The notes under the pieces were generated by a model, which was given only the letters and a program-made list of their open reading frames with translations, was not told where the DNA came from and ran no database searches. 64,000 bases of DNA from contig OY969927.1 in the NCBI GenBank assembly GCA_963704655.1, forward strand, positions 800,001 through 864,000. The letters are read 5' to 3'. Source of the stretch: an uncultured Candidatus Babeliaceae bacterium. GTDB taxonomy: Bacteria > Babelota > Babeliae > Babelales > Babelaceae. Each line of letters begins with the position of its first letter. Within the stretch, counting starts at the first letter, position 1. Below are positions 37,554 to 62,513 of the stretch, piece after piece. Made by a program: the position numbers and the translations under genes.

Positions 37554-39413
37554 TCAACTAAATGCAGCTGCCTGCCTAATTGGCCTTAAAAGACGATGAT
37601 AAACATAGGGCTCCCCATCTTTTTCACCAAAGGTATATTCTGCTCTGCAGTTCTGTTCTGCGCCTGTGGTAAGATTTTTGCGAGTAACTTCAGCAATAAG
37701 TTCATCTTCCGCCTCTGAAGAACCATCTTTCATAAAAGGAACAAGCTCCCCCACATATTGAATAACATAATCAAGCATCTGGGCAAAAGTATGATGCTCT
37801 ATGGTACTTTTTGCCAATTTCATCGCTTTTTTACCTTGTCCCTGCCTTTTTAAAATACGTTCATGATAACGAAGGCCCTTAATTTCTGCATAATTACGAT
37901 TAAGATCCGCTTTTGCCTTAACAATAAGCTCTTCATCTTGCTGCGGGTCCTCGATAACAAATATTTTATTTATTGGATCAATTTTACTCACAGAGCTACC
38001 ATCATCTACTTTGAAATTGTTGTTCCATTCTTTTGTGGTAATAGCAAATGGATCTTGCTCAGGCACTTTTGCAAATTGGCTAGAAGATTCGCCTTGCGTA
38101 ACTAGCGCAGGCTCTTCAAGAGTGGCCTTTTCTTTGCCTTTTTTTGATTTAGTTTTTTTCTTTTCTTCTTCTTGCAATAATTGCTGTTCTGCCCGCTCGG
38201 CTTTAATCTTTTTTATTGCTGGAAATAACTCATCCGTATCTAAATATATATCATCAAACTTATTCTTAGACTCTTCTATGAGCTTGAAACCTTCATTTTC
38301 ATTTTTATTTACACCAATACCAAAAAGGCGCATGTACCCGCGCGTTAAAATTACAGATCTTTGCGTGTTGTCAGTATCATTATAAATTTTTTTGAAATAC
38401 TCTTGTGCTTTTGCCTCATCTTTTTCAACACCAAACCCATAATGATATGCTATGGCTAGTTGCAATAGACCAATCGGCAGAATATCTATTTTGTTTGCTT
38501 CCGCTTGTTCAAGTATACGGATACCCTCTTGTTGTTCACCTTGTGTAATAAGTATCGTGCTATATAAAAATGCTGCTAAGTAATCTATTTTTGCCAGCTC
38601 TTTAAGCGATCCTTTTGCAGCTTGAGTATCGCCAACTATTTTTTTAGTCCATATTAGGCGCGCAATATGCGCCTTACCGCGTGCGCTATTTGCTTTCTCA
38701 AAATATTCACGGGCCTTAACTATGTTCGGTTTATGATCATTAAAGCCTTTTTCAGCCAAAAGGCCCAATCCAATGCATGCCAATTCGTAATTGTGAAAGG
38801 ATCGAATATGCTTTTCTGCAGGTAAATTTATAACCCTTAAAAACAAATCATGCGCTTTTTGTAAATCTTGTGGTATAACTTCATTTCCTTTGAAAAACTC
38901 AACAGCTAAATTGTAAATCCCCAGGGGATTATTTTTTGATGCCAATTTTTGATAATACTCAACAGCTGTTTTAACATCTTTTGGACCACCCTTCCCTTCA
39001 TTTAAAAGCTTGGCTAAATTGCTCATCGCATCATCTTCATAAGCAGTATGCATATCAATTGCTACTAGATAGTATTTTCTAGCCCTTCTATAATCTTTAT
39101 TTTCTTGATATTCAAATCCTAGATTATAGTTTTGTTCTAGAAATCCATGCGCTACAGCTTCAGACATATATCTTAATTTCTTATCTTTATCATTTTCTTT
39201 TATAGCCAAATCAGCCAAACGATTATAAGCATCAGGAATCCGATCACGCACCTGAAGAAGCATTCTTTCCGCTTCTGGCAAACTGTTATTACCCGCTATT
39301 AACATAGTCGCAAAATTATATATATATTCAGGATTGGCATCTGGGCCCGGATATCTAAAAAGTGCTGTGATTGAAGTAAAAGATAAAACTAGCAATACGA
39401 TTAAATAGTTCAT
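37554..39413 (-). CDS. Secreted SEL1-repeat protein with a conserved C-terminal domain; paralog of 55247..57163
   Basis: GKGGPKD..A..YY and GFGVEKD..KA SEL1 repeats; Lys-rich linker; terminal VYHRLLRP. Confidence 0.85.
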   Translation of the reverse strand: MNYLIVLLVLSFTSITALFRYPGPDANPEYIYNFATMLIAGNNSLPEAERMLLQVRDRIPDAYNRLADLAIKENDKDKKLRYMSEAVAHGFLEQNYNLGFEYQENKDYRRARKYYLVAIDMHTAYEDDAMSNLAKLLNEGKGGPKDVKTAVEYYQKLASKNNPLGIYNLAVEFFKGNEVIPQDLQKAHDLFLRVINLPAEKHIRSFHNYELACIGLGLLAEKGFNDHKPNIVKAREYFEKANSARGKAHIARLIWTKKIVGDTQAAKGSLKELAKIDYLAAFLYSTILITQGEQQEGIRILEQAEANKIDILPIGLLQLAIAYHYGFGVEKDEAKAQEYFKKIYNDTDNTQRSVILTRGYMRLFGIGVNKNENEGFKLIEESKNKFDDIYLDTDELFPAIKKIKAERAEQQLLQEEEKKKTKSKKGKEKATLEEPALVTQGESSSQFAKVPEQDPFAITTKEWNNNFKVDDGSSVSKIDPINKIFVIEDPQQDEELIVKAKADLNRNYAEIKGLRYHERILKRQGQGKKAMKLAKSTIEHHTFAQMLDYVIQYVGELVPFMKDGSSEAEDELIAEVTRKNLTTGAEQNCRAEYTFGEKDGEPYVYHRLLRPIRQAAAFS

Positions 39414-39728: not shown

Positions 39729-39805
39729 GTGCCCATAGCTCAGCTGGATAGAGCAACGGATTTCTAATCCGTAGGTCGTAGGTTCGAATCCTACTGGGCA
39801 CACCA
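39729..39805 (+). tRNA. tRNA-Arg (anticodon TCT)
   Basis: GTGCCCA/TGGGCAC acceptor stem, D-arm AGCTCAGCTGGATAGAGC, anticodon arm ACGGA-TTTCTAA-TCCGT, GGTTCGAATCC, encoded CCA. Confidence 0.97.
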
Positions 39806-41260
39806 ATTTCCAGTTTTTGCAGTTTCCATCACCACCCCAAATACGGGTTTAAGCTCCACGTCGATCTTTCCATCATTATAAGAACAGTTGGATGTTAAGA
39901 GCTCAATTATTCTTCTTTTAGCTGCAGCATTTCCATTTTTAAACAGCTCAGCCGCATTTTTCGCAAGTTCGATGATAAAGCGTGCATTTTCAAGATATTG
40001 TGTATCTGCCTTTTGAACAGCCAATAATTTTGTTAGCAGTTCTTCTTTTTCTGCCGACCATTTTTGAGAATTGGTCTTCCAGAATTCTTCACTGATTTTG
40101 CCATCGAGCTTATCTAAATAGACCTGATCGATTCTATTTTGTAATAAGCGTATCTGTTTTTCAAGCTGGGCAACCAAGCTATTATGGTATTCAATTTTGT
40201 CTTTTAAACTTTCACGAATTCCCTGTAAAATTATCTCTTGGTTTTCACTGGATACGTATAGGTTATCAACTATTATCGTAAATTGTTCTTCGATAGCTTC
40301 CTGTCGTATATATTCTTTCTTGCAGTTTCCTTTTGAAGTCGTGCAATAGTAATAAATATACTTATCCTTTTTAAGATCAGCTGTGAGCATACAGCCACAT
40401 TTGCTGCATTTTATAAGATTGGTGTAGGGAAATATCCCTTTCTTTGACTTGCTTTTACGTGGATTAAGAAGAACTTCCTGAACGCGTTGAAAGAGCTCCT
40501 TGCTCACCAATGGTTCATGGGAAGCATTTTCATATTTTTTGCCATTCCAGTAAAAAACACCCGTATAGAATTCATTTTTAAGGATAGTTTCAACTTTGCT
40601 GGTGTAGAAGTTTTTGCCATTACGATAAACCATCCCATCAGCTAACATCTTCTTGCGCAAAGACAGAAGAGAGTATGATCCAGTAGCATACAGTTCAAAC
40701 ATTTTCTTAACATATGGTGCTGTCTGTGGATCTACTAAGATGACCTTTTTGTCGCCTTTAAAGGTGTTAATATAACCATAAGGAGCTGTTGAAGGGTATG
40801 TTCCTTGAGCTGCTTTTTCAGTCATGCCTTTTTTAACTTCTTCTGATAGATTATCAATGTGATTTTTAGCCATAAGTGCTTTGATTCCAAAAATGAATTT
40901 CTCATTAGAACGTGCTTCTTTGCTAAGTATTACGTTCTCTTTAACAAGATGAATCCTTATATCACAGTCTTGTACGAGACGTTCCAGTAAGGCGTAATCG
41001 AACATGTTTCGTAAAAGTCGATCTGTTTTTTCTACTAAAAGATGCTTAACTGATCTGTTTTCATCAAAGAAAGCGAGCATTTTATTAAATTCTGTACGCC
41101 CAGCCTTTTTTGCAGTTTCTGCGTTAGCAAATTCTTTTACAATCGTATAATTGTTTTTAGCGGCATATTCATGTAGAACTTTAAGCTGCGCAGGGATCGA
41201 GAAACCTTCGACTTCTTGGTCTTTTGATGAAACTCGGGCGTAGATGACGGCTTTATTCAT
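39791..41260 (-). CDS. Large serine recombinase (integrase)
   Basis: YARVSS catalytic motif, DRLLR, recombinase domain APYGY, zinc ribbon CSKCG...YYYC...C. Confidence 0.95.
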   Translation of the reverse strand: MNKAVIYARVSSKDQEVEGFSIPAQLKVLHEYAAKNNYTIVKEFANAETAKKAGRTEFNKMLAFFDENRSVKHLLVEKTDRLLRNMFDYALLERLVQDCDIRIHLVKENVILSKEARSNEKFIFGIKALMAKNHIDNLSEEVKKGMTEKAAQGTYPSTAPYGYINTFKGDKKVILVDPQTAPYVKKMFELYATGSYSLLSLRKKMLADGMVYRNGKNFYTSKVETILKNEFYTGVFYWNGKKYENASHEPLVSKELFQRVQEVLLNPRKSKSKKGIFPYTNLIKCSKCGCMLTADLKKDKYIYYYCTTSKGNCKKEYIRQEAIEEQFTIIVDNLYVSSENQEIILQGIRESLKDKIEYHNSLVAQLEKQIRLLQNRIDQVYLDKLDGKISEEFWKTNSQKWSAEKEELLTKLLAVQKADTQYLENARFIIELAKNAAELFKNGNAAAKRRIIELLTSNCSYNDGKIDVELKPVFGVVMETAKTGNWCAQ

Positions 41261-42328: not shown

Positions 42329-44812
42329 TTGTCTACTATTGAAATTGGGATTGATTTAGGAACCACAAATTCCTCTATCGCGGTCATTCAACAAAATGCG
42401 GTACAGGGCATTAAAAATGCTTCAGGGGAAGAAAGTACCCCTTCTGTCATCTACGCTGATAAAAATGGAAACATTGTTGTCGGGTCGAGAGCGAAGAGAA
42501 TTATGAATAATTCCAAAGAAAACCTGCAAAATAGCAAGGCCGAAATCAAGCGTTTGATGGGTACAGCAGAGACTATTTTTTTCCCCAACTTGAATAAAAA
42601 AATGCTTCCCGAAGAAATTTCGGCAGAAATTCTGAAAGTACTTATAAATGATGCTAAGAGGAAGTACCCAGGGCTGCTTTTAGATGCGGCTGTGATTACG
42701 GTCCCTGCTTATTTTTCTACTGTGCAATCTGAGGCGACGAAAAGAGCTGGAGTTTTAGCGGGTTTGAGGCAAGTAGTTCTTCTTCAGGAACCAATTGCCG
42801 CAGCAATCGCATATGGTTTTCTTAATCAGAAGAACGAAAATTGGCTTGTATATGACCTAGGTGGCGGTACTTTTGATGTTGCTCTCGTAGCATTGCGTGA
42901 TGGATTTCTTACAGTTCTTGCCCATGCGGGAGATAATTTTCTCGGTGGTAAAGACTTCGACGCTGCGATCATACAAAATTTAATTCTTCCATCTCTTTCT
43001 ACCAAAGGTATCGTTTTAGATCCGTCAACTCACTCAGAAATCTTTAGTTACTTGAAAGAACTTGCTGAATTAGCAAAAATTGAACTTACCACGTGCGAAA
43101 GGACAACTATCGATATCGATGTCCAAGTAAATCAAGCCCAGGTCGAGCATTCTATTGAAATAACAAGGACAGATCTGCTGGAAAGCTGCAAACATTTGCT
43201 TGAAAAAACGGTCGACCTTTGCAAGAAGACAATCAGTGACGCCAATGTGGATCCAGCAACAGTTCAAAGAATTGTTCTTGTCGGTGGGCCGACACAAATG
43301 CCAATCTTACAAACTTTTTTGAAAAATTCCTTGCGAATCAATGTAGATGGAGGTTTAGATCCTCTACTAGTGGTTGCAAAAGGTGCTGCTATGTTCGGCA
43401 ATCAAACAGTAATCACTACCCCTGAAGGACAAGGGGATATCGACATATCAAACGTTTCCTGCCAGCTCGAAGTAAATTACAATCCAGTAACATCCGATGA
43501 TGAACAAATTGTCACAGGCAAGGTTTTGCGCATCACTGGTGCATCTCAGCCATATTCAGTTCAGTTTGCAAGCTCTGATGACTCCTTTGCGTCTGAAGAG
43601 ATTCTTATTAAAAATGGCAAATTTATACTGACGCTTCCTACAGGCAAAAAAGGTACATCATATTGGATTTATGTTAAAGACAATGATGGTCAGCTGATTA
43701 CTTCAGCTCCTGAAAGCATTCAAATTAATAGAGGCATTTCTATCATGGGAGCCCCCCTTCCTTATTCAATTGGCGTATCCGTGATTTCTCTTTCTTCCCA
43801 CAAAGGTTATGCTGATCCGACCGAGACAATAGAATTCTTTTTTTCTAAAAATAGCATTTTGCCCCTTAAAGAAAAAAAACGCTTTTATACTCTTGCCGAT
43901 TTAAGAGCAGGATCCTCCGAAAATGCTCTCCCTATTTGCATTTATGAAGGCGAATCTCTTATCACAAATCGAAATACTTTAGTCTGCCATTTGGCAATCA
44001 CAGGAAAAGCAATTTCTAAAGATTTGAAAAGAGGCACCCCGGTCGACATCACAATTGAAGTTAATGAATCAAGAGAGTTGAGTGTGATGGCCTATCTTCC
44101 GGATTCTGATATTACCCTTAATGCAAGAGAAACTTTGTATTTTGATGCTGCTAAAATTGACGAGGTAAAGAAGGATTTTACAGAGCAGGTAACACGCTCA
44201 GAATCCATAGCTGCATCTGCAGGGCCAATAAATGAAACCAATGGCATCAAGAATATGATTAAAGATATTCAATCTACTATCGATGACTCAGGATCAGACT
44301 CAGATCAGCAAAGAAAGGCAGAAAAACAAGTAAAAGACTTGATGATGGCCCTTGATCGAATTGAGGCGAAAACAAAATTTAATAGCAATGTTGCTACTTT
44401 CTGGCAAGAATGCCAGGAGCTCACTGATTATCTGGAAGATTGTAATCCGCCTGATAAACGCACCGAATACGAAGCCACATATAATACTCTTCGTAAAGAA
44501 GGATTAATGGCTATATCTAAAGAAGATGCGATATTATTAGAGCATATTGTTCAAAAATTGAGTCGACTTAATTTCAGATGTGTGTATAACGATGTTCGTT
44601 ATCTGACCTCATGGATTAAAGATTTAATAAAACAGGTGCAGGAAAAGGCCCATCTCCATCCTACTCTTCCAGACTTAATCAACAGAGCCAAAGATGCCCT
44701 AGCTAAATTAAATGTAAAAGAGATGCAGGAGCTTATTCATGCGCTTGATCCATTTACGGAGGAAGAAGGAAAGCATCAGGTTCGATTTGTGAAGTCGGGA
44801 ATTACGTTATGA
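42329..44812 (+). CDS. Divergent, extended Hsp70-family protein (not the housekeeping DnaK)
   Basis: IGIDLGTTNS, AVITVPAYF, EPIAAA, DLGGGTFD, LGGKDFD, LVGGPT; ~110-aa insert before an SBD-like region; TTG start with GGGGAGG RBS. Confidence 0.9.
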   Translation: MSTIEIGIDLGTTNSSIAVIQQNAVQGIKNASGEESTPSVIYADKNGNIVVGSRAKRIMNNSKENLQNSKAEIKRLMGTAETIFFPNLNKKMLPEEISAEILKVLINDAKRKYPGLLLDAAVITVPAYFSTVQSEATKRAGVLAGLRQVVLLQEPIAAAIAYGFLNQKNENWLVYDLGGGTFDVALVALRDGFLTVLAHAGDNFLGGKDFDAAIIQNLILPSLSTKGIVLDPSTHSEIFSYLKELAELAKIELTTCERTTIDIDVQVNQAQVEHSIEITRTDLLESCKHLLEKTVDLCKKTISDANVDPATVQRIVLVGGPTQMPILQTFLKNSLRINVDGGLDPLLVVAKGAAMFGNQTVITTPEGQGDIDISNVSCQLEVNYNPVTSDDEQIVTGKVLRITGASQPYSVQFASSDDSFASEEILIKNGKFILTLPTGKKGTSYWIYVKDNDGQLITSAPESIQINRGISIMGAPLPYSIGVSVISLSSHKGYADPTETIEFFFSKNSILPLKEKKRFYTLADLRAGSSENALPICIYEGESLITNRNTLVCHLAITGKAISKDLKRGTPVDITIEVNESRELSVMAYLPDSDITLNARETLYFDAAKIDEVKKDFTEQVTRSESIAASAGPINETNGIKNMIKDIQSTIDDSGSDSDQQRKAEKQVKDLMMALDRIEAKTKFNSNVATFWQECQELTDYLEDCNPPDKRTEYEATYNTLRKEGLMAISKEDAILLEHIVQKLSRLNFRCVYNDVRYLTSWIKDLIKQVQEKAHLHPTLPDLINRAKDALAKLNVKEMQELIHALDPFTEEEGKHQVRFVKSGITL

Positions 44813-46626
44813 ACATCCAGCTACCGCAGGTTTTGATTAGAAATTCATTCAATATACTAGGCCTTTCTTCTTCTGCTACTTTAAAGGAAATTAGAAAAAG
44901 AACTCAGCAACTTTTACAACTTGCAAAAATTGAAGAGATGCAAAAGTTTGATGCTGATATCGGGCATGTCTGTGAATTTCGAAATGAGAACGAAGTTCGG
45001 CTTGCAATGGAAAGAACATCGAGCGTCAAGGAACGCCTACGGGAAACCTTTTTTTGGTTCGATGACCATAATATAGAAAATCAGAAAGCCATTGCCCTTA
45101 TTTCGCAAGAGAATTATCGTGAAGCTATAGCTATCCTCGAAAAAACGAATGCTGCAAGCATGGATTGGTTAGAGCATAAGAACTTAGCCCTGGCTTTGAT
45201 TTTCCAAGCCTTTGCTTCCTCGGATCTTAGTAGTTTTAGTCACTCATTAGAGTTATGGAAACGAATCGTAGAGTCTGAAGTTTTTTGGAAGTTCTATGAA
45301 AAAAATTATATGCTTCATGATGAGTTTGGAACGTCTACATTCTTATTTCAGGAATTTAGAAGCTCAATTTACGAATCTTTATCCGCAATGACAGTTTCTT
45401 TCTATCATCAAACTAAAAATCCTGAAGCCATAGGCATTTATTTTTCTGAATTCGGTCAAATAGAAAAATCTATAGACTGTGAGGTTATTCAGCCAATCGT
45501 GACTAAGATTAAAAAAGAAATAGAAGACTTAGAAAAAATAGCTTCAGAATCGAGCAGCGATGCGAGCTTGATAAAGCAGGCTCTAGAAAAAATTCATAAA
45601 TACTTTGTGAAACTGGATCAATTTAAACTCTTCGAATATTCGCCATTAACTATCCTAAAAAATGACTCTGCTGAAAAATTACGATCTATTTCTATTGATA
45701 TCTATAATCAGAGTGAGAATGCTGAGTTAGCCTCATTGTTCCTTGATCAAAGTGCAGAGCTTGCTATTTCTGATGTAATTGTAAGAAAGATTGAGTCTGA
45801 CAAAAAAGTGATAAAAAACAATGAATTATGGGAGGCAATTTCTACCAGGTTCAATCGAATAAAAGAATTAATCGCAGAGAAAAAAATCGAAGAAGCTAAA
45901 AGTGTTTATTACGATTTGGACAATGAACTGGCTAGGCAAAATAACGGGTCATCTAAAGATACTAGAATCGTTCTGCTTATTCGCCTTTGCTATCAATTGA
46001 TGGGGAAGGGACATGAACTTTTCAATAAAAAAAAGTTTGGTATCAAGATTCTTGCGATTGGCGCTTTTTTAAATCGGCAAAATCATAAAGATGCGATACA
46101 TATTTTTGAGTATGTAATTGAAATATTGATGAATAAAATCTCTATATTAAGTTTTATAGATATTTACAATGACAGATCTTATCTCTTAAAAGAAATAGAA
46201 AATATATCAAACTCTCTAGAAAATTGTGAACTTTCTGATTTAATAAATGAACATGAACCGTACTTAAAATCACTAGAAATGTTTGCCGATGGGCAAGAGA
46301 ATGAGGATACGCAAGCTGTAATACATGTGCTAGGTTTTGCCATATACTTTAGCATTTTGTATCGCAGGATTCGTGGTATTATGCAAAGAAAAATGTGGCA
46401 ATGGGTAGCTTGTGGAACGGTAATTGCCTTCTATTTCTTAGTAATTATGAATAATGACAAGTGCGAATCAAAAATTGAGAAAGCTTTAACCTACGAAGAA
46501 AAAAGTATTATTGAATATTTGCAGGAAAATAGCCCGGAAGTACTTAAGAATATTAGAAGGGAGGGTTATTCTGATAAACAGATAGCCCAATATGCTTTAG
46601 ACCAAATAGCGAATGAGAAAAAATGA
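44809..46626 (+). CDS. Helical protein with an N-terminal J-domain-like segment and a C-terminal TM helix
   Basis: NSFNILGLSSSATLKEIRKR resembles J helices I-II but has no HPD; WQWVACGTVIAFYFLVIM TM segment. Confidence 0.7.
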   Translation: MNIQLPQVLIRNSFNILGLSSSATLKEIRKRTQQLLQLAKIEEMQKFDADIGHVCEFRNENEVRLAMERTSSVKERLRETFFWFDDHNIENQKAIALISQENYREAIAILEKTNAASMDWLEHKNLALALIFQAFASSDLSSFSHSLELWKRIVESEVFWKFYEKNYMLHDEFGTSTFLFQEFRSSIYESLSAMTVSFYHQTKNPEAIGIYFSEFGQIEKSIDCEVIQPIVTKIKKEIEDLEKIASESSSDASLIKQALEKIHKYFVKLDQFKLFEYSPLTILKNDSAEKLRSISIDIYNQSENAELASLFLDQSAELAISDVIVRKIESDKKVIKNNELWEAISTRFNRIKELIAEKKIEEAKSVYYDLDNELARQNNGSSKDTRIVLLIRLCYQLMGKGHELFNKKKFGIKILAIGAFLNRQNHKDAIHIFEYVIEILMNKISILSFIDIYNDRSYLLKEIENISNSLENCELSDLINEHEPYLKSLEMFADGQENEDTQAVIHVLGFAIYFSILYRRIRGIMQRKMWQWVACGTVIAFYFLVIMNNDKCESKIEKALTYEEKSIIEYLQENSPEVLKNIRREGYSDKQIAQYALDQIANEKK

Positions 46627-47696
46627 TAAAATTTGCCAAACCATCATTTCCGCCTGGATGGATTTTGCCTGACGGAGCGAAGATTTTAAAAAGAATCGAT
46701 AAGCAAGAATTTGCTGAAGTGTTTGAGCTGAATACCGGAGAGTATCTTTATTTATTTCATGAAGAAAAAATTGCAAAAAAACTCAAAAGCCGCGGAATTT
46801 CACATGAAATCTATTTTATTAGCGGTGCAAAAGCTATTGGGAAAAAATATTCTGACCATAAAGATGGTGATCTTCCAGAAAGGTTGAAAAATATTATCCA
46901 AAGAAGAGGGCTAGATGCTATTGCAGGTATGACTGCACTTAAGAACACTTTAGTTAGAGATGTTATTCAGCCGTTTCTAAACTGGGAGGCATATGAAAAA
47001 TATGGCGTTACCCCATCTAATGGTATTCTTTTATTCGGCCCTCCTGGTTGCGGTAAAACATTTATAGCAAAAAAACTTGCAGAGGCAATGAAAGCTGAGC
47101 TTATTGAATTGAGCGAGGGAACCGTTGGTAGCCCTTATATTCATGCAACCTCCACAAACATTGTGCAGGCGTTTCAAAAAGCTGCGATGGTAGCTCCATC
47201 TGTACTCTTTGTAGATGAAATTTCAGGATTAATGCCAAGAAGAGATGGACTATCTTCACAAGAGCAATACAGAGAAGCAGAAATCAGCGAATTTTTGATG
47301 CAGATGGAAAGCAGTGTAAAGAATAAAGTCCTAGTAGTTGCAGCAACTAATTTCCCAGAGAAAATCGATCCGGCAATTTTACGTTCTGGGCGAATGGATA
47401 AAAGAATCTTTATCTCACCCCCTGATGCAGAAGCAAGATGCGAATTATTGCACCTGTTTTTAGAAGAAAGACCCATTGATAAAGAAATCGACTTTGAAGA
47501 ACTTGCCAGGATCACAGAAGGGCTAATTTCTTCTGACCTAAAATTAATAGCTAACAATGCTGCCCTGAAGGCGCTACATAAGAATGCATTAATTTCTATG
47601 GAGTTATTAGCAGAAGAAGCTTCACAGTTTAAGCCATCCTTAACTCAAACTGAACTAAATCGATATCGTGAATTCGAAGGCTACAATAGAGGTTAA
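46623..47696 (+). CDS. AAA+ ATPase (classic CDC48/FtsH clade, single module)
   Basis: GPPGCGKT, LFVDE, ATNFPEKIDPAILRSGRMD second region of homology. Confidence 0.93.
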   Translation: MIKFAKPSFPPGWILPDGAKILKRIDKQEFAEVFELNTGEYLYLFHEEKIAKKLKSRGISHEIYFISGAKAIGKKYSDHKDGDLPERLKNIIQRRGLDAIAGMTALKNTLVRDVIQPFLNWEAYEKYGVTPSNGILLFGPPGCGKTFIAKKLAEAMKAELIELSEGTVGSPYIHATSTNIVQAFQKAAMVAPSVLFVDEISGLMPRRDGLSSQEQYREAEISEFLMQMESSVKNKVLVVAATNFPEKIDPAILRSGRMDKRIFISPPDAEARCELLHLFLEERPIDKEIDFEELARITEGLISSDLKLIANNAALKALHKNALISMELLAEEASQFKPSLTQTELNRYREFEGYNRG

Positions 47697-50055: not shown

Positions 50056-50290
50056 GGTTGAAAGGTTGAACGACTTCATTATCATGTTCAAATTATAATT
50101 CTAGCTCTAGGTCGATGGATTGCTGTCGATAAAAGGCTTGGTTGAAGGGTTGATAAATCTTATTACTCATTTTAAGTATCGATCTTGATCAACCCTTCAG
50201 TTTTAATTATTCATTATTAAATAAATATAGCCTATAGGATGTTTTTTAGGTTGAAACTACATTTCAACTTTTTTCAACAACTTCAACTAT
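50056..50290. repeat. GTTGAA/TTCAAC iteron-like cluster, putative element origin
   Basis: GGTTGAA at 50056, 50064, 50140 and 50249; GGTTGAT at 50148; TTCAAC at 50263, 50273 and 50282; AT-rich core. Confidence 0.55.
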
Positions 50291-51949
50291 TACAGGTTTA
50301 TAGATCCAATCCTTTCGGTGCTCTTTTTTTTCAAAAGTTACTCTACCACTGTCGATTAAAGTTTGAAAAATATACTCATATTCTTTAGAACCACCCTTCA
50401 ACTTTTTTGAGGTAATAATTTGCGCCCACGTAACAGGTCTTTTTGAAGCAGCAGCCCATTTGCAAAGAGCTTCATGCATTATACGGCACTTCCGTTCATG
50501 CTCAGACTCTCCCAATTCTCCCTCAAAAAGCTGAATTGTGGACTGTATAGCGCGATGCAAGATCGCAAAAGCAGCCCAGAGGGCTTCCTCGCTTATATCT
50601 TTTGTAGTCGGATCTATAAAAAGCTGTATGATCATTGCTAACTTTAAAAGATACGGACTCCATCTTTTTAAGTATGGGTCTAAGATTTCTCGACTTCGGT
50701 CGCTATAAGCTTTTGGCATATCATTGATTTTTTTATGCATCGCTTCAAATACTGCTTTTGCAGAGCCTGCAAGAGGATTGAAGACGTAATTGTCACTTAT
50801 CGCATCTAAAACATCCATTATTTCTGCTTCAATTTCATGATCCGTTTTTTCTGTGTGGGCAGGCAAAGCAGGTGGAACTTCTTCTTGATGAGGTGGCGTA
50901 AAAATCAAAAAGCGGGCGAAAAATCCACTAGGGATATCCGTTATTTTAAGGTTATCTTGAATCCAAGGTAAAGTAGAAACGCCACATATGGAAAAGCAAG
51001 GGCGTTCTAATATACAATCGCCCTGTGTTTTGGTTTTATATCTATAAGATGGTGGAACATCATAAAGTTCGGTGAATATAGCTTTTAAATCATTATTATG
51101 GTTTTTATCAAAATTTTGTAACCATGCTCCAAATTCACTGGCAAGAATAACTCCTTGATGCCCTTGGCTTAGATGTTCGAGTAGGGCCTCTGCTGTCATT
51201 TTATTAGGCAAAATGACGTCTTGTCTTGAAATCGCAAGTATATCTTCCTCGATCATTTTTTTTTCTTTTGGATCTATTGTTATGCGGAGTGATGCATGTA
51301 ACTTTTTGATCTGATCAGTTATGATTTTATTTTTTACCCAAGCAAGGTTGGCCCCTTTATTAAGTGCCGTGCTCTTAAATTGTCCGCTTTTTGTGATGGA
51401 TAGTATCCATAAGTTAGGAAAAAGAGTTTGAAAATATGGGTATGAAACACGCTTTCCTAAAATAGCAGAGATTGTAGCCATCACAGACATTGTTATCATT
51501 ATTGGGTGCGCATTTGTTGTTTCGCAAATAGAGAGTATATAAGTACTGAGTGGAGGCGGTAGAAGCGATGGAGTAAAACCTTCGCAAGGATCGTCTTTTT
51601 TTTGACCAACCACAGACAATTTCTCGAGCTCTAAAGGTAGAAGATCATTCAAGCCGGCTTTGTCACAGAGTGAGTTAAATTCGGCTTGTTCATTTTCATT
51701 TAGCGGATGCGAATCATAAGTATACTCAGCGCCATCGCCCCAGTACATACATGTTAAGGATTCTTGATTATTTCTTAACGTAACTGATGCCATATACATA
51801 GCTGGTTTATTATAAGGTTGGGCTATATATTCGTAAGTATTACCATCTGGTGTGATCGGTCCATCTATGGCCAGATCATGTTCAGCCATATGTTGTCGAC
51901 ATTCTTCAAATAAATTACGTTTTTTTATGATATAATTAAGATTATTCAT
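50264..51949 (-). CDS. DUF3987/YfjI-like replication protein (helicase-like)
   Basis: NLWILSITKSGQFKST, TAEALL..L, SEFGAWL, GFFARFL. Confidence 0.8.
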   Translation of the reverse strand: MNNLNYIIKKRNLFEECRQHMAEHDLAIDGPITPDGNTYEYIAQPYNKPAMYMASVTLRNNQESLTCMYWGDGAEYTYDSHPLNENEQAEFNSLCDKAGLNDLLPLELEKLSVVGQKKDDPCEGFTPSLLPPPLSTYILSICETTNAHPIMITMSVMATISAILGKRVSYPYFQTLFPNLWILSITKSGQFKSTALNKGANLAWVKNKIITDQIKKLHASLRITIDPKEKKMIEEDILAISRQDVILPNKMTAEALLEHLSQGHQGVILASEFGAWLQNFDKNHNNDLKAIFTELYDVPPSYRYKTKTQGDCILERPCFSICGVSTLPWIQDNLKITDIPSGFFARFLIFTPPHQEEVPPALPAHTEKTDHEIEAEIMDVLDAISDNYVFNPLAGSAKAVFEAMHKKINDMPKAYSDRSREILDPYLKRWSPYLLKLAMIIQLFIDPTTKDISEEALWAAFAILHRAIQSTIQLFEGELGESEHERKCRIMHEALCKWAAASKRPVTWAQIITSKKLKGGSKEYEYIFQTLIDSGRVTFEKKEHRKDWIYKPVIVEVVEKS

Positions 51950-55246: not shown

Positions 55247-57163
55247 ATGGACACACACGTAAGGGGATTGGGAATGGTTAATAACGCCTTTAAATTATTA
55301 ATACCGTTGGTATTATCAGTATTTGCTCCACATGTATGCTGCTCTGAAAATAGGGGTCCAGAATCAGAATATGATTATGCGGTATGGATTTTAAATGGGC
55401 TTTCAACAAACCCAGAAGCATCTCAGGAAATGATAAGTAGAGTAGAAAATACATTTTTGCGGACAAGAGATAAATATTCTGACGCGCGCAGAATGTTAAT
55501 AAAAGTTGCAAGCTTACAAAATGATCCAGATAAACAGATTCGATATGCTCAAGATTCTGTAGAACACGGAAACCCTGGCGATAACTTGTATATCGCTAGA
55601 GCTTATGAGAAAAAAAAGAATTATAAAAAAACCCAAGAATACCTTGAAAAAACTATCGCATCCGGGAGCACCTATATAAACACAGCTCGCGTCGAGTTAG
55701 CTGTATTGCTGTTTCAAGGAAAGGGTGGGCCAAAGGATATTTATCGTGCACAAAAATATCTCCAAGATGCAGCCAATGATAATTCTCTTCAAGGTAAATT
55801 TAATTTAGCAATGAGCTATGTTAATGGCCCTAAGGAGCTACCTAAAGATCCTGAAACCGCCTACAAAATCTTGTCTGAGGTAATAAAAATCCCAATTCAA
55901 AATATTGAAAAATCTGAAATGGAATATTATTTTGAGGCATATGCACAGCTAGGATTGATTATTGAAAAGGGGTTTAAAGGTTACAAACCGGATCCAGCAA
56001 GAGCATATAGCTATTTTAAAAAATTGCAGGAATTAGGTAACGGAATGGGCACAGTTCATTGTGCGCGCTTAATCATTTCAAAAAAGGTTCCCGGAGATAT
56101 CAATAGCGCAAAAGCTGATCTTAAAAAGCTTGCTGATGATGGCATGCCTTTTGCAAAATTCATATACAGCTCAATACTCATTTCTGAAGGGCAGCAAGAT
56201 GAGGGTATCCGCTTGCTGGATGATTCGTATACAAGAAATCAACAAATTTTACCTGTGGGAATGCTTCAGCTTGCAATAGCCTATCACTATGGCATTGGCG
56301 TAGAAAAAGATGAGCAAAAAACGCTGGAATTACTTGAAAAAATAAATAATGACCCTGATGATAGATGGCGATCTTTATTTCTTGCACGAGCCTATATGCG
56401 CTTTTTGGGCTTAGGGGTAAAAAAGGATATTAAAAAAGTTAATGAACTCTTAGAAAAAGCAAATGAAAAATCTGATGACGTATATTTAGATACGTATCAG
56501 TTATTTCCTTCATTAAAAAGTTTAATAGAGGAACAAGCGCAAAAATTGCTTAAAGAAGAAGAGCTCGAAAAAAGCAAGAAAAAGGGCAAGAAAAAAGCGG
56601 TCATTGAGCAAGAGGAGCCTATTTTGGCAGGTGAATCTTCGACAGCTTCAACTTCTGGGCAAGAAGCTCAAGAGAGTTTTATAACTATTGCCGAATGGAA
56701 GAAGATATTCAAGGCCTCAGATGACGGAAGCTTTGTAAGCGCCATAGACCCGGTTCTAAAAATGATTACTATTCAAGACCCTCAACGTCATGAAGAGCTT
56801 ATAGTATATGCTGCAGAAAATAGATTCCGGGATCTCTCTGAAATTGAATATTTAAAAATTGCCACATGGGCCTTAATAAGGCAGGGAATAAAAAAACCGA
56901 AAAAAATCGAACATGCACCTACTGCAAGTCAAGAATATAACCATTCATTTGCAGATATGCTTGACTACGCTATTCAATACGCTGGCCAGTTAGTACCCTG
57001 GGTAAAAGCGGGCTCTGCTGACCCAGAAGACCAGCTGACGGTTGATGTTATCCGCAAAAATACCAAAACGGGCAAAGAATTATCATGCAGAGCAGAATAT
57101 ACCTTTGGCCAAAATGGCGTGTATCACCGACTTTTACGGCCGTTAAAAGAGAGAAATCAATAA
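55247..57163 (+). CDS. Secreted SEL1-repeat protein, paralog of 37554..39413
   Basis: GKGGPKD, GMLQLAIAYHYGIGVEKD, CRAEYTFG..GVYHRLLRP. Confidence 0.85.
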   Translation: MDTHVRGLGMVNNAFKLLIPLVLSVFAPHVCCSENRGPESEYDYAVWILNGLSTNPEASQEMISRVENTFLRTRDKYSDARRMLIKVASLQNDPDKQIRYAQDSVEHGNPGDNLYIARAYEKKKNYKKTQEYLEKTIASGSTYINTARVELAVLLFQGKGGPKDIYRAQKYLQDAANDNSLQGKFNLAMSYVNGPKELPKDPETAYKILSEVIKIPIQNIEKSEMEYYFEAYAQLGLIIEKGFKGYKPDPARAYSYFKKLQELGNGMGTVHCARLIISKKVPGDINSAKADLKKLADDGMPFAKFIYSSILISEGQQDEGIRLLDDSYTRNQQILPVGMLQLAIAYHYGIGVEKDEQKTLELLEKINNDPDDRWRSLFLARAYMRFLGLGVKKDIKKVNELLEKANEKSDDVYLDTYQLFPSLKSLIEEQAQKLLKEEELEKSKKKGKKKAVIEQEEPILAGESSTASTSGQEAQESFITIAEWKKIFKASDDGSFVSAIDPVLKMITIQDPQRHEELIVYAAENRFRDLSEIEYLKIATWALIRQGIKKPKKIEHAPTASQEYNHSFADMLDYAIQYAGQLVPWVKAGSADPEDQLTVDVIRKNTKTGKELSCRAEYTFGQNGVYHRLLRPLKERNQ

Positions 57164-57491: not shown

Positions 57492-59135
57492 TTAAACCGG
57501 TACAATATCAGTAATAGATTTTGCAATTTCAGAACGGGAGCTTGAAAGAAATTCATAAAATTCTTTCCCCTCAAATTCCTTAAGTGCTTGTTCTATTTTA
57601 TACAAACGGCGCCAAAGATCGTCTATTTTACCTGTTTCTTTAGACATCTCTCTGTTGTGAACGGCGTCTAAGGCTTCTGAAAGTTTAAGTAATTCAAATG
57701 CATTATTTTGCGCCTTTTCAACATCCTCTAAGGTGATATTTTTATTATCAAAAATAGTTAAAATATTATTAATTTTTGATTTTCTTTGCTCAAAAGTGGT
57801 AGATATATTTTCTCCTTTTGAAATCTTTAAACCGTCATGTAATCTATCTGCACGATCTCTTAATTTTTTAAAATCCGGCGTAGCAGGCTTACTTCCAGGA
57901 CTAAAGATTGAAAAGGGGTTGAACGACCAAGTAGTTTTTTCTGATTGTTGAATATCCTGCAAAACCTTCAAGGCTTTTTCAATTCGGCCAACTGCTATTA
58001 ATGACATATAAAGTTTTTCAACTTCAGTAATTTTAGCTTGAGGGTTATTTAAAAGTCCTAATGATGGTTCAATTTCATATAAAATTAGTTGAAGCGCTTC
58101 ACCCAGCCCTTTTTCTTGATAGCGCCCATTACTATAATTTTTAATAGCTTCTAAACCATCATAAAGCTTACCTAGTTGGTCTTCCAACTTGGAAAGACTT
58201 TCAGTATTCTTAAGATGTTCCCTAAAAGGATGCGACATACGGTTGGCAAAAGCTCTGTTGCTATCAATGTTTCTGGAAATTTTTAAAGCTTTTTCTGCAG
58301 TAGCATGTGCTGTTTTTATTTTTTCCATTGTAGCAACTGTAGGATTTTCAAAGTAAGAGCCGACCGTTTTGAGCTGATTTACGTATTCATCAAGCTTTTG
58401 TTCTTGTTCTATTATAATTTTATTTATGTCACCAATTTTCTCAGACGGTGAACGATAACTTTTTTGCCTACTATATAAAGCTGACCACGCTCCTTTGACA
58501 GATTCGCTTAATGGAGAAGCTTCACCTTTTAATGCATCAAGCCCTTCAACTATAGTACGTAATTTCCACATCTGCTCTTCTGCTTGTTTTATTTCTTCAA
58601 GCGTTGCGCTTTTATTGTTTAATACAGCATTAGCCTTATTGATTTTTGCTTGAATATTAAAGTTCTCCTCAGATAAATTCCCAGTCGTTGAACCTTTACC
58701 CATTCCAGCCTTAGCTTCATTTGCTTTTTGATAGCTTGTAGATGACCCTTGTTTCGATGAATCCCCGGCCTTAGTCCAAGCACCCATACTTTCTTGGGTA
58801 AAGGGCGCCTCTTGATTAATCATTTCTAGTAATGGGCTTTTTGGATCACGAGAAATAATGAATTTTTTAGTTTCTTCAAGCGTTTGCCAGTCCTTTTGCC
58901 TCATCGCATTTCTTGCCCGATCAAGAATTTTTTGGTCCATTTCACTAAGTTCTTTCTTGGCCCCAGGCATAGTTGAAGCATATCGTAGCTGACCCATCGG
59001 CCTATTCCAAAAATTGCTCACCCGAGTTCTTCCCAATACATAGGCACGCCTCCAAATATTAGAAGCTTGAGCAGCCGAAAGCTCAGGAATAACCATAAGC
59101 ATTAACAACAACGTAACGTATAAAGACTTTTGCAT
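57492..59135 (-). CDS. Secreted helical-repeat protein with a mitochondrial-presequence-like segment
   Basis: Signal peptide, then an Arg-rich acid-free stretch ending LRYAST; internal repeat LNNKSATLEEIKQA / FDNKNITLEDVEKA. Confidence 0.75.
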   Translation of the reverse strand: MQKSLYVTLLLMLMVIPELSAAQASNIWRRAYVLGRTRVSNFWNRPMGQLRYASTMPGAKKELSEMDQKILDRARNAMRQKDWQTLEETKKFIISRDPKSPLLEMINQEAPFTQESMGAWTKAGDSSKQGSSTSYQKANEAKAGMGKGSTTGNLSEENFNIQAKINKANAVLNNKSATLEEIKQAEEQMWKLRTIVEGLDALKGEASPLSESVKGAWSALYSRQKSYRSPSEKIGDINKIIIEQEQKLDEYVNQLKTVGSYFENPTVATMEKIKTAHATAEKALKISRNIDSNRAFANRMSHPFREHLKNTESLSKLEDQLGKLYDGLEAIKNYSNGRYQEKGLGEALQLILYEIEPSLGLLNNPQAKITEVEKLYMSLIAVGRIEKALKVLQDIQQSEKTTWSFNPFSIFSPGSKPATPDFKKLRDRADRLHDGLKISKGENISTTFEQRKSKINNILTIFDNKNITLEDVEKAQNNAFELLKLSEALDAVHNREMSKETGKIDDLWRRLYKIEQALKEFEGKEFYEFLSSSRSEIAKSITDIVPV

Positions 59136-59292
59136 ATTCCGCCCCTCATTTAGCCGGTATAGAAAAAATTAATTCTTAATAAGATTTTATTAACCATGAG
59201 CATGGAAAGTCAATAATGCTTTATAAACTCAAATTCAAATTATTATGTTATTATTTTGTAAAACAGAAAGAACACAAAGTTAAAGTGCCTGT

Positions 59293-61016: not shown

Positions 61017-61379
61017 CTAAAGCACGCCTCTTTTTATTTCGCCTAAAATTTGCTTTGCTTCAGATTTATCATGATAATGGGTAGCAACTGTTTGAGCATC
61101 ATTTTTTAACGCAGCGCGGACCAATGCTTGAGCATCCCCGACCACCAGCCCACGCTCCAATAAAGCTTTACCAGCTTTCATGCGGCCATTACAAGCAACG
61201 GTTTTTGCTGCCGCTCTATCTACATTACGCTCAACGTCTTTATTTGCATTAATATATTTTTCTAGATAAACACGGTCAGCATCTTGGCCCACAAAATTTT
61301 GACTTACAATATCAGTGTTTACTGCGTGTAAAGATGATATAAAAAGCAGTGATAAAAAGATATTATTTACGTAGTTCAT
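61017..61379 (-). CDS. Secreted hypothetical protein
   Basis: Signal peptide ending SSLHA; GGGGG RBS. Confidence 0.65.
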   Translation of the reverse strand: MNYVNNIFLSLLFISSLHAVNTDIVSQNFVGQDADRVYLEKYINANKDVERNVDRAAAKTVACNGRMKAGKALLERGLVVGDAQALVRAALKNDAQTVATHYHDKSEAKQILGEIKRGVL

Positions 61380-61568
61380 AATAAACCCCCAAAGTTACTA
61401 AAAAAACTTAATATAGTAATGATAGTAACAATATCAATTTATATTCTGCAATATAAAAATCACTCTTTATTACAGATCTCTTTTATATAAGCTATAAAAG
61501 CATCAACATCTTGCTCGCGGGAATCAAAAGCATTAAATTTATTGGCTAGCATTTACAACGGCTACAGA

Positions 61569-61898
61569 TTAAGTCTCTTGTCCAGCTCTGATAAGTGCTA
61601 AATGAGTAGCTATAAAGTGCGCATTCTCTTCAGTGCCTGCATACTGATATGCCCCTGCACCTTTATCTTTATTATGAATATAAAAATGATCCTCATAATC
61701 TATTTTTAATACCATGATAGGAACACCTCGATATGCCCGATAACGAATATCTAGGCCCACAAGCTCATTTGTGTAACTTAAATTTTTAGCTTGGGCAACA
61801 GTTAATTCATCCGGTATTTCAAATCTTTTTGATAAGCATGGCCCGGATACTATAGAGCTAGAAGATAAAATCGTTAAAAAAAATAATATTTTTTTCAT
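61569..61898 (-). CDS. Secreted hypothetical protein, distant paralog of 61962..62513
   Basis: Signal peptide; GPCLSKRFEIPDELT. Confidence 0.65.
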   Translation of the reverse strand: MKKILFFLTILSSSSIVSGPCLSKRFEIPDELTVAQAKNLSYTNELVGLDIRYRAYRGVPIMVLKIDYEDHFYIHNKDKGAGAYQYAGTEENAHFIATHLALIRAGQET

Positions 61899-61961
61899 AA
61901 AATCTTTCTTAATTAAACTAAATTTATAGGTACATATATGGGTTACGTTACCCTAAGCAAC

Positions 61962-62513
61962 TTAATCTCGCTCGTTTAGCGTGCGCAATAAATTAGCAGC
62001 CATAGCCTTATCACCTAAGAACTTAAATATTTGATTCTCTTGAGCGATGTAGTAGCCGCTTTTCATATTATTACGTTCACAAAGCAGAACTTTCACGCCT
62101 TCTATCTCCTCCTCCACAATGGTAGGTGCAATAGAATATAATTCTGCAGCACTAATTTCATCCGGAAAAGATGGCTTCTTTTTTAATTGCTCGCAAAACC
62201 TTTGCTGAACACATGGCCAATCGCCAATAATTTTATATTTCTCCCAAGCTGGATCGTTTTTATCTGAAACATACAAATAATAAGCGCTTCCACTAATAGT
62301 AGAGGTACCCAATTGTTTTTGATTTTGTAAATGAACCAATATCACTCCCAATTTTTCTGCCTCTTCTGGGGCTCTCACGGTAGATATATATCGATTAGTG
62401 GCTATTTCATGCCGAGTTAATAATTCTGGGAGAGTCGCTTTGCGGCTTAAGTTGCCACCAGCTTGTAACTGCAAAGCAAGAAATGCTACGCCGAGATACA
62501 ATAATTTTTTCAT
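61962..62513 (-). CDS. Secreted hypothetical protein with two internal repeats
   Basis: Signal peptide; GGNLSRKATLPELLT and KPSFPDEISAAE. Confidence 0.7.
   Translation of the reverse strand: MKKLLYLGVAFLALQLQAGGNLSRKATLPELLTRHEIATNRYISTVRAPEEAEKLGVILVHLQNQKQLGTSTISGSAYYLYVSDKNDPAWEKYKIIGDWPCVQQRFCEQLKKKPSFPDEISAAELYSIAPTIVEEEIEGVKVLLCERNNMKSGYYIAQENQIFKFLGDKAMAANLLRTLNERD

Follow-up and report, generated by a model that had tools for sequence, protein, structure and literature searches.

An arginine-rich, acid-free leader behind the signal peptide of an orphan Dependentiae protein, and its possible mitochondrial destination

Introduction

The Dependentiae (TM6) are widespread obligate parasites of protists. 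Signal peptides are carried by nearly half of their proteins, and no targeting logic beyond Sec is known for their predicted secretome. Here we ask what the N-terminus of one predicted secreted protein of this group is made for. The protein is encoded in a stretch of 64,000 nucleotides (G000:C1:800001-864000), called the window in the following, of a Dependentiae genome (G000, the source genome) which consists of a single contig of 1,298,077 bp with a guanine plus cytosine (GC) content of 38.0%. Its open reading frame (ORF), referred to as the target, lies on the minus strand at window positions 57492-59135 and encodes 547 amino acids (aa) followed by a stop codon, with ATG as start. An earlier reading of the DNA (the sequence-only reading) had proposed that positions 58971-59135, which are codons 1-55, encode a bipartite leader made of a bacterial signal peptide and a mimic of a mitochondrial presequence. 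A modular second leader of that kind would give a first sequence handle for sorting the secreted proteins of Dependentiae by destination.

Results

The target N-terminus consists of two successive elements

Behind the signal peptide the sequence-only reading had counted six Arg and no Asp or Glu, with a Lys/Glu-rich rest of the protein. This description is exact. Residues 25-55 hold 6 Arg (19.4%), 0 Lys, 0 Asp and 0 Glu and have an isoelectric point of 12.0, whereas residues 56-547 contain 11.0% Lys, 10.2% Glu, 4.3% Arg and 4.5% Asp. With the amino-acid frequencies of the genome, a 31-aa stretch without Asp or Glu and with at least six Arg is expected with a chance of about 5e-5 per stretch. 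Trp is, besides Arg, the other residue in which this leader is rich.

The first element was assigned by a simple heuristic of our own, which was used in place of SignalP. Residues 1-24 contain one Lys (Lys3, in the n-region), one Glu and a hydrophobic core of 13 residues, the genome-wide median for signal-peptide-like N-termini being 12. The c-region includes Pro and Glu, and Ala is found at -3 and -1 before residue 25. The N-terminal flank of the core has a charge of +2, compared to +1 in the 15-aa C-terminal flank. By these properties, residues 1-24 resemble a cleavable Sec signal peptide of the signal peptidase I type in every sequence feature. A signal peptidase I (TIGR02227, 106.5 bits, above the cut-off) and two secretins are encoded in the source genome. 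A Tat signal was rejected, as the Arg pair lies behind the hydrophobic core and the predicted cleavage site, and as TatC (PF00902) gave 0 matches in this 96% complete genome.

Both elements are present in relatives of the target. An exhaustive search of 1.84 billion representatives returned five proteins at E<=0.001, and a word-indexed search of 5.8 billion proteins returned two at the same threshold among 8000 scored candidates, self included in both cases. The family occurs in 3 of 261 Dependentiae genomes, which are the source genome and two of its five congeners, all of genus g1; it was not found in any of the 255 Dependentiae genomes outside that genus. The target is an orphan protein confined to one genus of Dependentiae. 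The basic stretch is found in all four homologues, at 30-52% identity, and is acid-free in three. These three (P0003, P0004 and P0006) have the same signal-peptide layout as the target, with a basic, acid-free stretch of roughly 25-40 aa behind it. The fourth, P0005, is encoded on a 2.8-kb contig and begins with a comparable basic stretch which has a Glu at its third residue and no signal peptide in front; it may be truncated. R30 and R51 are invariant across the homologues. At the end of the leader, an aromatic residue stands at position 52 in four of the five aligned sequences and Ser or Thr at positions 54-55 in most, and in the homologues the acidic, Lys-rich body starts a few residues past this boundary motif.

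Met1 is supported as the start of the protein by the conserved N-terminus of the homologues and by a Shine-Dalgarno-like site (Table 1). Internal starts at Met47 or Met56 were rejected, since the codons upstream of them are kept in the homologues and the Shine-Dalgarno-like site stands before Met1.

An AlphaFold2 model from the alignment of five sequences has a mean predicted local distance difference test score (pLDDT) of 68.3. Residues 1-62 score below 50 and lie outside the fold.

A class of similar leaders in the source genome

A scan of the genome for other bipartite leaders, which the sequence-only reading had suggested, brought up about nine proteins, two of them with a J-domain. From the source genome 1371 ORFs were kept, and the tests were done on the 991 of at least 150 aa. 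Segments of 30 aa behind heuristic signal peptides were compared with internal control positions in the same proteins. Acid-free segments with at least four Arg were found at 7 of 498 positions behind signal peptides and at 2 of 2218 internal positions (Fisher p=1.7e-4). With at most one acidic residue and at most two Lys, the counts were 14/498 and 11/2218 for four or more Arg (p=2.5e-5), and 6/498 and 0/2218 for five or more (p=3.7e-5). An acid-free segment with at least four Arg is also seen at 4 of 493 N-termini without signal peptide. The heuristic, which flags 498 of the 991 ORFs, is permissive, yet its yield is in line with the 44% of proteins with signal peptides given for Chromulinavorax destructans in the available text of PMC6561590.

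Nine proteins were grouped into a class. These are the target, the neighbouring genes L003 and L004, L005 to L007, L009 and L010 (Table 1), and L008. Five matches of the relaxed scan (genome coordinates 655641, 887385, 929256, 1006433 and 429478) were left out of the class, either because they looked different or were Ser/Pro-rich, or because they were uninspected. The nine leaders are 31-64 aa long and have 5-8 Arg and 0-1 acidic residue each. Taken together (401 aa) they consist of 12.5% Arg, 15.2% Ala, 11.0% Thr, 9.5% Ser, 0% Asp and 1.5% Glu. The enrichment of Arg is inherent in the selection of the class; the depletion of Lys is not, with 3.0% in the leaders versus 6.5% in the genome, which overall prefers Lys to Arg, and 9.8% in these proteins outside their leaders.

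A motif R-x-[FYL]-[ST] closes six of the nine leaders, and the target has the shifted form R-[YF]-x-S-T; this motif is low in information, and both motif and leader ends were defined after the data were seen. The boundary lies 28-59 aa behind the predicted cleavage site. Between 15 and 45 aa behind signal peptides the density of R-x-[FYL]-[ST] is 0.0018 per residue versus 0.00088 overall, which is about twofold.

The class could reflect composition without any function, the target leader being a chance Arg-rich linker and its companions a product of paralogy and selection. The nine members make up some five groups, and three of these are sets of adjacent genes, while the Fisher tests assume independence; the signal-peptide heuristic, which flags half of the tested ORFs, is also permissive. 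We nevertheless hold it for highly improbable. It leaves open why the basic stretch of the target is kept at the identities given above, acid-free in three of four homologues and with invariant Arg, and why segments with at least five Arg occur behind signal peptides and at no internal control position. In addition, leaders recur on diverged homologues in the same genus, and a control genome shows no enrichment. This control (G006; 1,118,422 bp, 27.4% GC), which belongs to another genus of the same family, gave 1/365 versus 3/1881 and 2/365 versus 8/1881 in the corresponding comparisons; Arg is rarer there owing to the GC content of 27%.

Another explanation does without export. The N-terminus would then be an uncleaved reverse signal-anchor with its end outside, the Arg stretch would form the cytoplasmic positive-inside flank, and the J-domain members would act together with the bacterium's own DnaK. 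DjlA of E. coli is a membrane-anchored J-protein with such a reverse signal-anchor arrangement. The many Arg on the C-terminal side of the hydrophobic segment would be accounted for, as would the J-domain cargo, without host delivery, and several members possess a second, weakly hydrophobic Gly/Ala-rich segment. The geometry, however, speaks against it. The cores comprise only 10-13 residues in all nine proteins, around the genome median of signal-peptide-like N-termini, and in all nine the N-terminal flank exceeds the 15 residues behind the core in positive charge, by +1 to +5. Behind the core comes an acidic residue or a small-x-small site, and the first basic residue comes only at +5 to +9 past the predicted cleavage site in nine of nine leaders. 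A DjlA-like anchor was therefore rejected, with cores too short and flank charges in the wrong direction, and we consider it very unlikely.

Two observations were made beside the scan. In L005, L008, L009, L010 and L090, a homologue of L008, inspection showed, after the leader, a Gly/Ala-rich, weakly hydrophobic segment of about 15-20 aa, followed by two or three Tyr; such segments are encoded at G000:C1:187705-188469, 217418-219412 and 1145804-1147474. The other observation concerns Met at position +1 of the predicted cleavage site, which is found in 40 of the 498 flagged proteins (8.0%), compared to 1.2-2.4% at +2 to +6 and 2.1% overall. Among the leader proteins four of the nine have it, as do several homologues of the same genus (examples are C1:217418-219412, C1:1145804-1147474 and C1:188707-189231). 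In the target and the J-domain proteins a Met also comes directly behind the leader boundary. The excess at +1 could be due to old start codons left behind by N-terminal grafting, to alternative starts or to a preference of signal peptidase.

J-domain cargo and distribution of the leaders

In L003 and L004 the J-domain begins directly after the leader boundary. Six J-domain matches were found in the source genome in all. A J-domain needs an Hsp70 partner, and an exported J-domain without such a partner in the periplasm suggests that these proteins act on Hsp70 of the host.

The leaders and their cargo can be followed into other genomes. A congener (G005) encodes two adjacent J-domain proteins with signal peptide and Arg-rich leader, which are about 31% identical to L003. 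The family of L008 has leaders in G003 (L087 and L090) and in G005 (L092), while its members in G001 (L088 and L091) have a signal peptide and no leader. In a J-domain protein of another genus (L023 from G014) the signal peptide stands directly before the J-domain. L005 and L009 gave no match in the five congeners. As far as sequence comparison goes, the leader is a real, modular and lineage-specific N-terminal element, and it probably is a portable signal that acts after Sec export.

Where could the leader direct its cargo?

Among the readings considered, mimicry of a mitochondrial presequence with host mitochondria as destination is the best single one, though we put it forward tentatively. 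The following sequence of events would be conceivable. Sec exports the precursor, and removal of the signal peptide by signal peptidase I would turn the basic leader into the new N-terminus. The protein would then leave the bacterium, for which the secretins or outer-membrane vesicles are candidate routes. The TOM/TIM23 machinery of the host would read the leader as a matrix-targeting presequence, with processing at the Arg-containing boundary.

The target leader and the leaders of the class resemble presequences in being net positive, Arg-rich, almost free of Asp and Glu and roughly 15-60 aa long. Mitochondrial processing takes place with Arg at -2 or -3, and the boundary motif of the leaders would fit that rule. 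Length, richness in Arg, lack of acidic residues, the use of Arg rather than Lys and an Arg-containing boundary before a folded domain are hence points which may be counted for mitochondria. With the same reserve we count the J-domain cargo and the weakly hydrophobic segments, which resemble sorting signals. A secreted MPP-like (mitochondrial processing peptidase) enzyme of the bacterium itself as the protease that cuts the leader boundary was rejected, since the only M16 (pitrilysin/MPP-type) peptidase of the source genome (C1:1048113-1050740, 875 aa, with HxxEH) is without signal peptide.

Several results weigh against a mitochondrial destination. The first concerns the amphipathic helix, which is expected of a presequence and of which the target leader gave no sign. 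Its maximal hydrophobic moment (0.439 over 18 aa) is no higher than that of shuffled sequences (0.41+-0.12, p=0.38-0.40). The proposal of a bipartite leader with a presequence mimic is supported in part: a Sec-type signal peptide followed by a distinct, conserved, Arg-rich and acid-free segment outside the predicted fold is present, and the amphipathicity of that segment does not rise above what its composition gives. For the leaders of the four homologues the corresponding p values are 0.018, 0.005, 0.10 and 0.21, two of them below 0.05. Across the nine leaders the mean z is 1.1, and only L008 (p=0.004) and L003 (p=0.026) are below 0.05.

The second concerns composition and conservation. Mitochondrial presequences are rich in Leu, while the pooled leaders have 6.2% Leu versus 10.1% in the background and are enriched in Pro (6.7%) and Gln (7.0%); in this respect they look more like a basic disordered region than like a Leu-rich presequence. 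Presequences usually drift faster than the mature protein, while the conservation of the target leader is, judged by eye, about that of the mature part. The J-domains of L003 and L004 are closest in the PDB to generic DNAJB/Hsp40 proteins (best E=3.8e-7), and do not group with mitochondrial J-domains in particular. In E. coli, Sec export is disfavoured by a net positive charge early in the mature region, and the early mature region of the target is neither neutral nor negative, with four Arg in its first 18 residues and the first basic residue at +5. No route is known that would take the protein from the periplasm across the outer membrane, and across any host vacuole, into the host cytosol.

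The third concerns the statistics and the biological precedent. The Fisher tests overstate independence because the nine members represent about five groups of neighbouring or similar genes, the signal-peptide calls behind them flag half of the tested ORFs, and there is some circularity in the Arg enrichment and the motif counts, given that the class was selected on Arg and the leader ends were set at the motif. The sequence-only reading had invoked the TM6 parasite Chromulinavorax, which remodels the mitochondrion of its host, and this argument is weak. The source genome is not that of C. destructans (1,174,272 bp, 33.7% GC), and in the available text of PMC6561590 close mitochondrial association is unique to C. 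destructans among the isolates. As that association is unique and the family a different one, the link does not transfer directly. The word 'targeting' is absent from the available text of Deeg et al. 2019 (PMC6561590). In the literature covered, no report of presequence-like leaders in Dependentiae was seen; secretome tables in supplementary files were outside the scope.

Two further explanations accept export and place the function of the leader elsewhere. According to one, the leader is a lineage-specific host-translocation signal or a cleavable propeptide without relation to mitochondria. Its Arg/aromatic-rich stretch and the R-x-aromatic-S/T boundary would serve a second step after Sec, at the outer membrane, in vesicles or, in the manner of a cell-penetrating peptide, at the host vacuolar membrane. 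RxLR and PEXEL motifs, which in effectors of oomycetes and Plasmodium follow the signal peptide at a distance of some tens of residues, would be a functional likeness. A modular leader between signal peptide and unrelated cargo, the distance and roughly doubled density of the Arg-containing boundary and the Trp/Arg-rich leader of the target would all agree with such a signal, which is also compatible with the absence of a significant amphipathic periodicity. However, Dependentiae are not known to possess a machinery or protease for such a step, the motif carries little information and was defined post hoc, and the data do not separate this explanation from the mitochondrial one. We regard it as unlikely.

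According to the other, the leader is a basic disordered tether. Without being cleaved and without specificity for an organelle, it would hold the helical-repeat body at anionic surfaces, either of the bacterium's own envelope, of vesicles or of any host membrane. The composition of the nine leaders, with Arg, Ala, Pro, Thr, Gln and Ser up and Leu, Ile and Phe down, is typical of disordered basic regions; the low AlphaFold confidence of residues 1-62 and the mostly non-significant amphipathicity point the same way, and the repeats show a weak likeness, below the cut-off (E=0.035), to FIVAR, which is a domain of surface proteins. In an AT-rich genome, however, Lys would be the expected residue for a generic electrostatic tether, yet Lys is depleted in the leaders (3.0% versus 6.5%). 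The conserved boundary motif, the invariant Arg and the J-domain cargo would remain unexplained as well. To this explanation, too, we give little credence.

Mature part of the target and neighbouring genes

The features of the target and of the class members are listed in Table 1.

Table 1. Positions of the target features (window coordinates) and of further members of the leader class.
Feature	Position	Strand	Remarks
Shine-Dalgarno-like GAGGGG	59142..59147	-	6 nt 5' of the target ATG
Predicted signal peptide, residues 1-24	59064..59135	-	own heuristic scan; conserved in P0003, P0004, P0006
Arg-rich acid-free leader, residues 25-55	58971..59063	-	composition, conservation, low pLDDT
Boundary motif R-[YF]-x-S-T, residues 51-55	58971..58985	-	Met56 and the Lys/Glu-rich body come next
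Small N-terminal helical domain, residues 56-110	58806..58970	-	most strongly conserved region in the family
Disordered linker of variable length, residues 111-155	58671..58805	-	pLDDT 25-36; indels among homologues
All-helical body with four degenerate repeats of about 80-100 aa each, residues 156-547	57495..58670	-	DSSP on model
L003, L004	G000:C1:692702-695790		adjacent J-domain proteins; PF00226 E=6e-12 and 5e-10
L005, L006, L007			three adjacent orphans in the leader class
L009, L010			two adjacent, visibly similar orphans in the leader class

The N-terminal domain of the model has helices at residues 65-79, 83-96 and 101-109 (pLDDT 70-84, assigned by DSSP), and most invariant alignment columns are within residues 63-106. 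Local alignment of the internal repeats against shuffled sequences gave z=12.5 for segment A (151-235) versus D (422-547), z=5.4 for B versus D and z=4.1 for A versus C. No Pfam family reached its cut-off on the target, the best ones being Cnn_1N (E=0.014) and FIVAR (PF07554); for the latter, residues 160-188 scored 15.2 bits with a cut-off of 29.2, and membership was not accepted. A Foldseek comparison of the model with the PDB yielded only generic helical repeats, none of them at E<=0.001, a sequence search of the PDB returned 0 matches at E<=1, and a search of the ESM Atlas gave no usable match. No RNA sequencing run was listed with the target; it was found with small shares in DNA metagenomes, which is uninformative on expression.

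The neighbourhood of the target is rich in candidate effectors. Proteins with Sel1 repeats flank the region at window positions 37554-39413 and 55247-57163, and on the downstream side, just past the neighbours of the target, three small orphans with signal-peptide-like N-termini are encoded at 61017-62513. A large serine recombinase with Resolvase, Recombinase and Zn_ribbon_recom domains and a DUF3987 protein are encoded at 39791-41260 and 50264-51949, upstream of the target region, and this part may be an integrated mobile element. On the plus strand at 42329-47696 three genes encode a protein of 827 aa that begins with an Hsp70/MreB-like ATPase domain, an orphan of 605 aa and an AAA ATPase of 357 aa. 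At 11411-17392 a protein of 1993 aa ends in a Peptidase_S74 domain (E=7.6e-9), the intramolecular chaperone of endosialidases which is found in tail-fibre-like proteins.

Discussion

If the leader should direct its cargo to mitochondria, a bacterium would use only Sec and the import machinery of its host to place J-domain and membrane proteins in the energy organelle of that host. If the mitochondrial reading fails, the leader is still a conserved, unexplained and lineage-specific feature.

A wider view, which we regard as doubtful, would be that one genus of Dependentiae evolved a portable presequence module, or took it from its hosts, and inserted it between Sec signal peptide and diverse cargo, so that a Sec-dependent set of effectors is imported into host mitochondria. 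The cargo would then comprise J-domain co-chaperones, proteins with Gly/Ala-rich segments suited to sorting into the inner membrane, and helical-repeat proteins, and the Met at the junctions might be old start codons from stepwise grafting.

By analogy, the closest known design is that of an effector of Liberibacter; type III and type IV effectors that carry mitochondrial targeting sequences come second. The available text of PMC4933711 describes Las5315 (CLIBASIA_05315), a Sec-dependent effector of Ca. Liberibacter asiaticus, with a signal peptide and a predicted organelle-targeting peptide in succession, of which only the form without signal peptide localises around the organelle. An obligate intracellular bacterium (for Dependentiae this lifestyle is taken from the literature) and a second leader behind the signal peptide are common to both cases. 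According to the same source, ChloroP predicts the second signal of Las5315 to be a chloroplast transit peptide, and the case is that of a single protein in a plant pathogen. In contrast, the leader is here presequence-like and is found in about nine proteins of protist-associated Dependentiae; there is no sequence relationship between the two systems.

Map and EspF of enteropathogenic E. coli and Ats-1 of Anaplasma enter host mitochondria with an Arg-rich, presequence-like N-terminus after type III or type IV delivery. Their targeting sequence is located at the true N-terminus, whereas the proteins described here would first have to lose a Sec signal peptide. Mitochondrial J-domain co-chaperones carry a presequence directly before the J-domain, and L003 and L004 are similarly built, with the leader followed by the DnaJ domain; the 547-aa target differs from them in having no J-domain. 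Finally, the bipartite leaders of complex plastids and the RxLR/PEXEL signals share with the present case a second modular element some tens of residues downstream, which is read after the first membrane and occurs on unrelated cargoes. Those are eukaryotic systems which start at the translocon of the endoplasmic reticulum, whereas the first step would here be the bacterial Sec translocon. On the wider view given above, the leader proteins of this genus would be what bipartite leaders are to complex plastids, in bacterial form.

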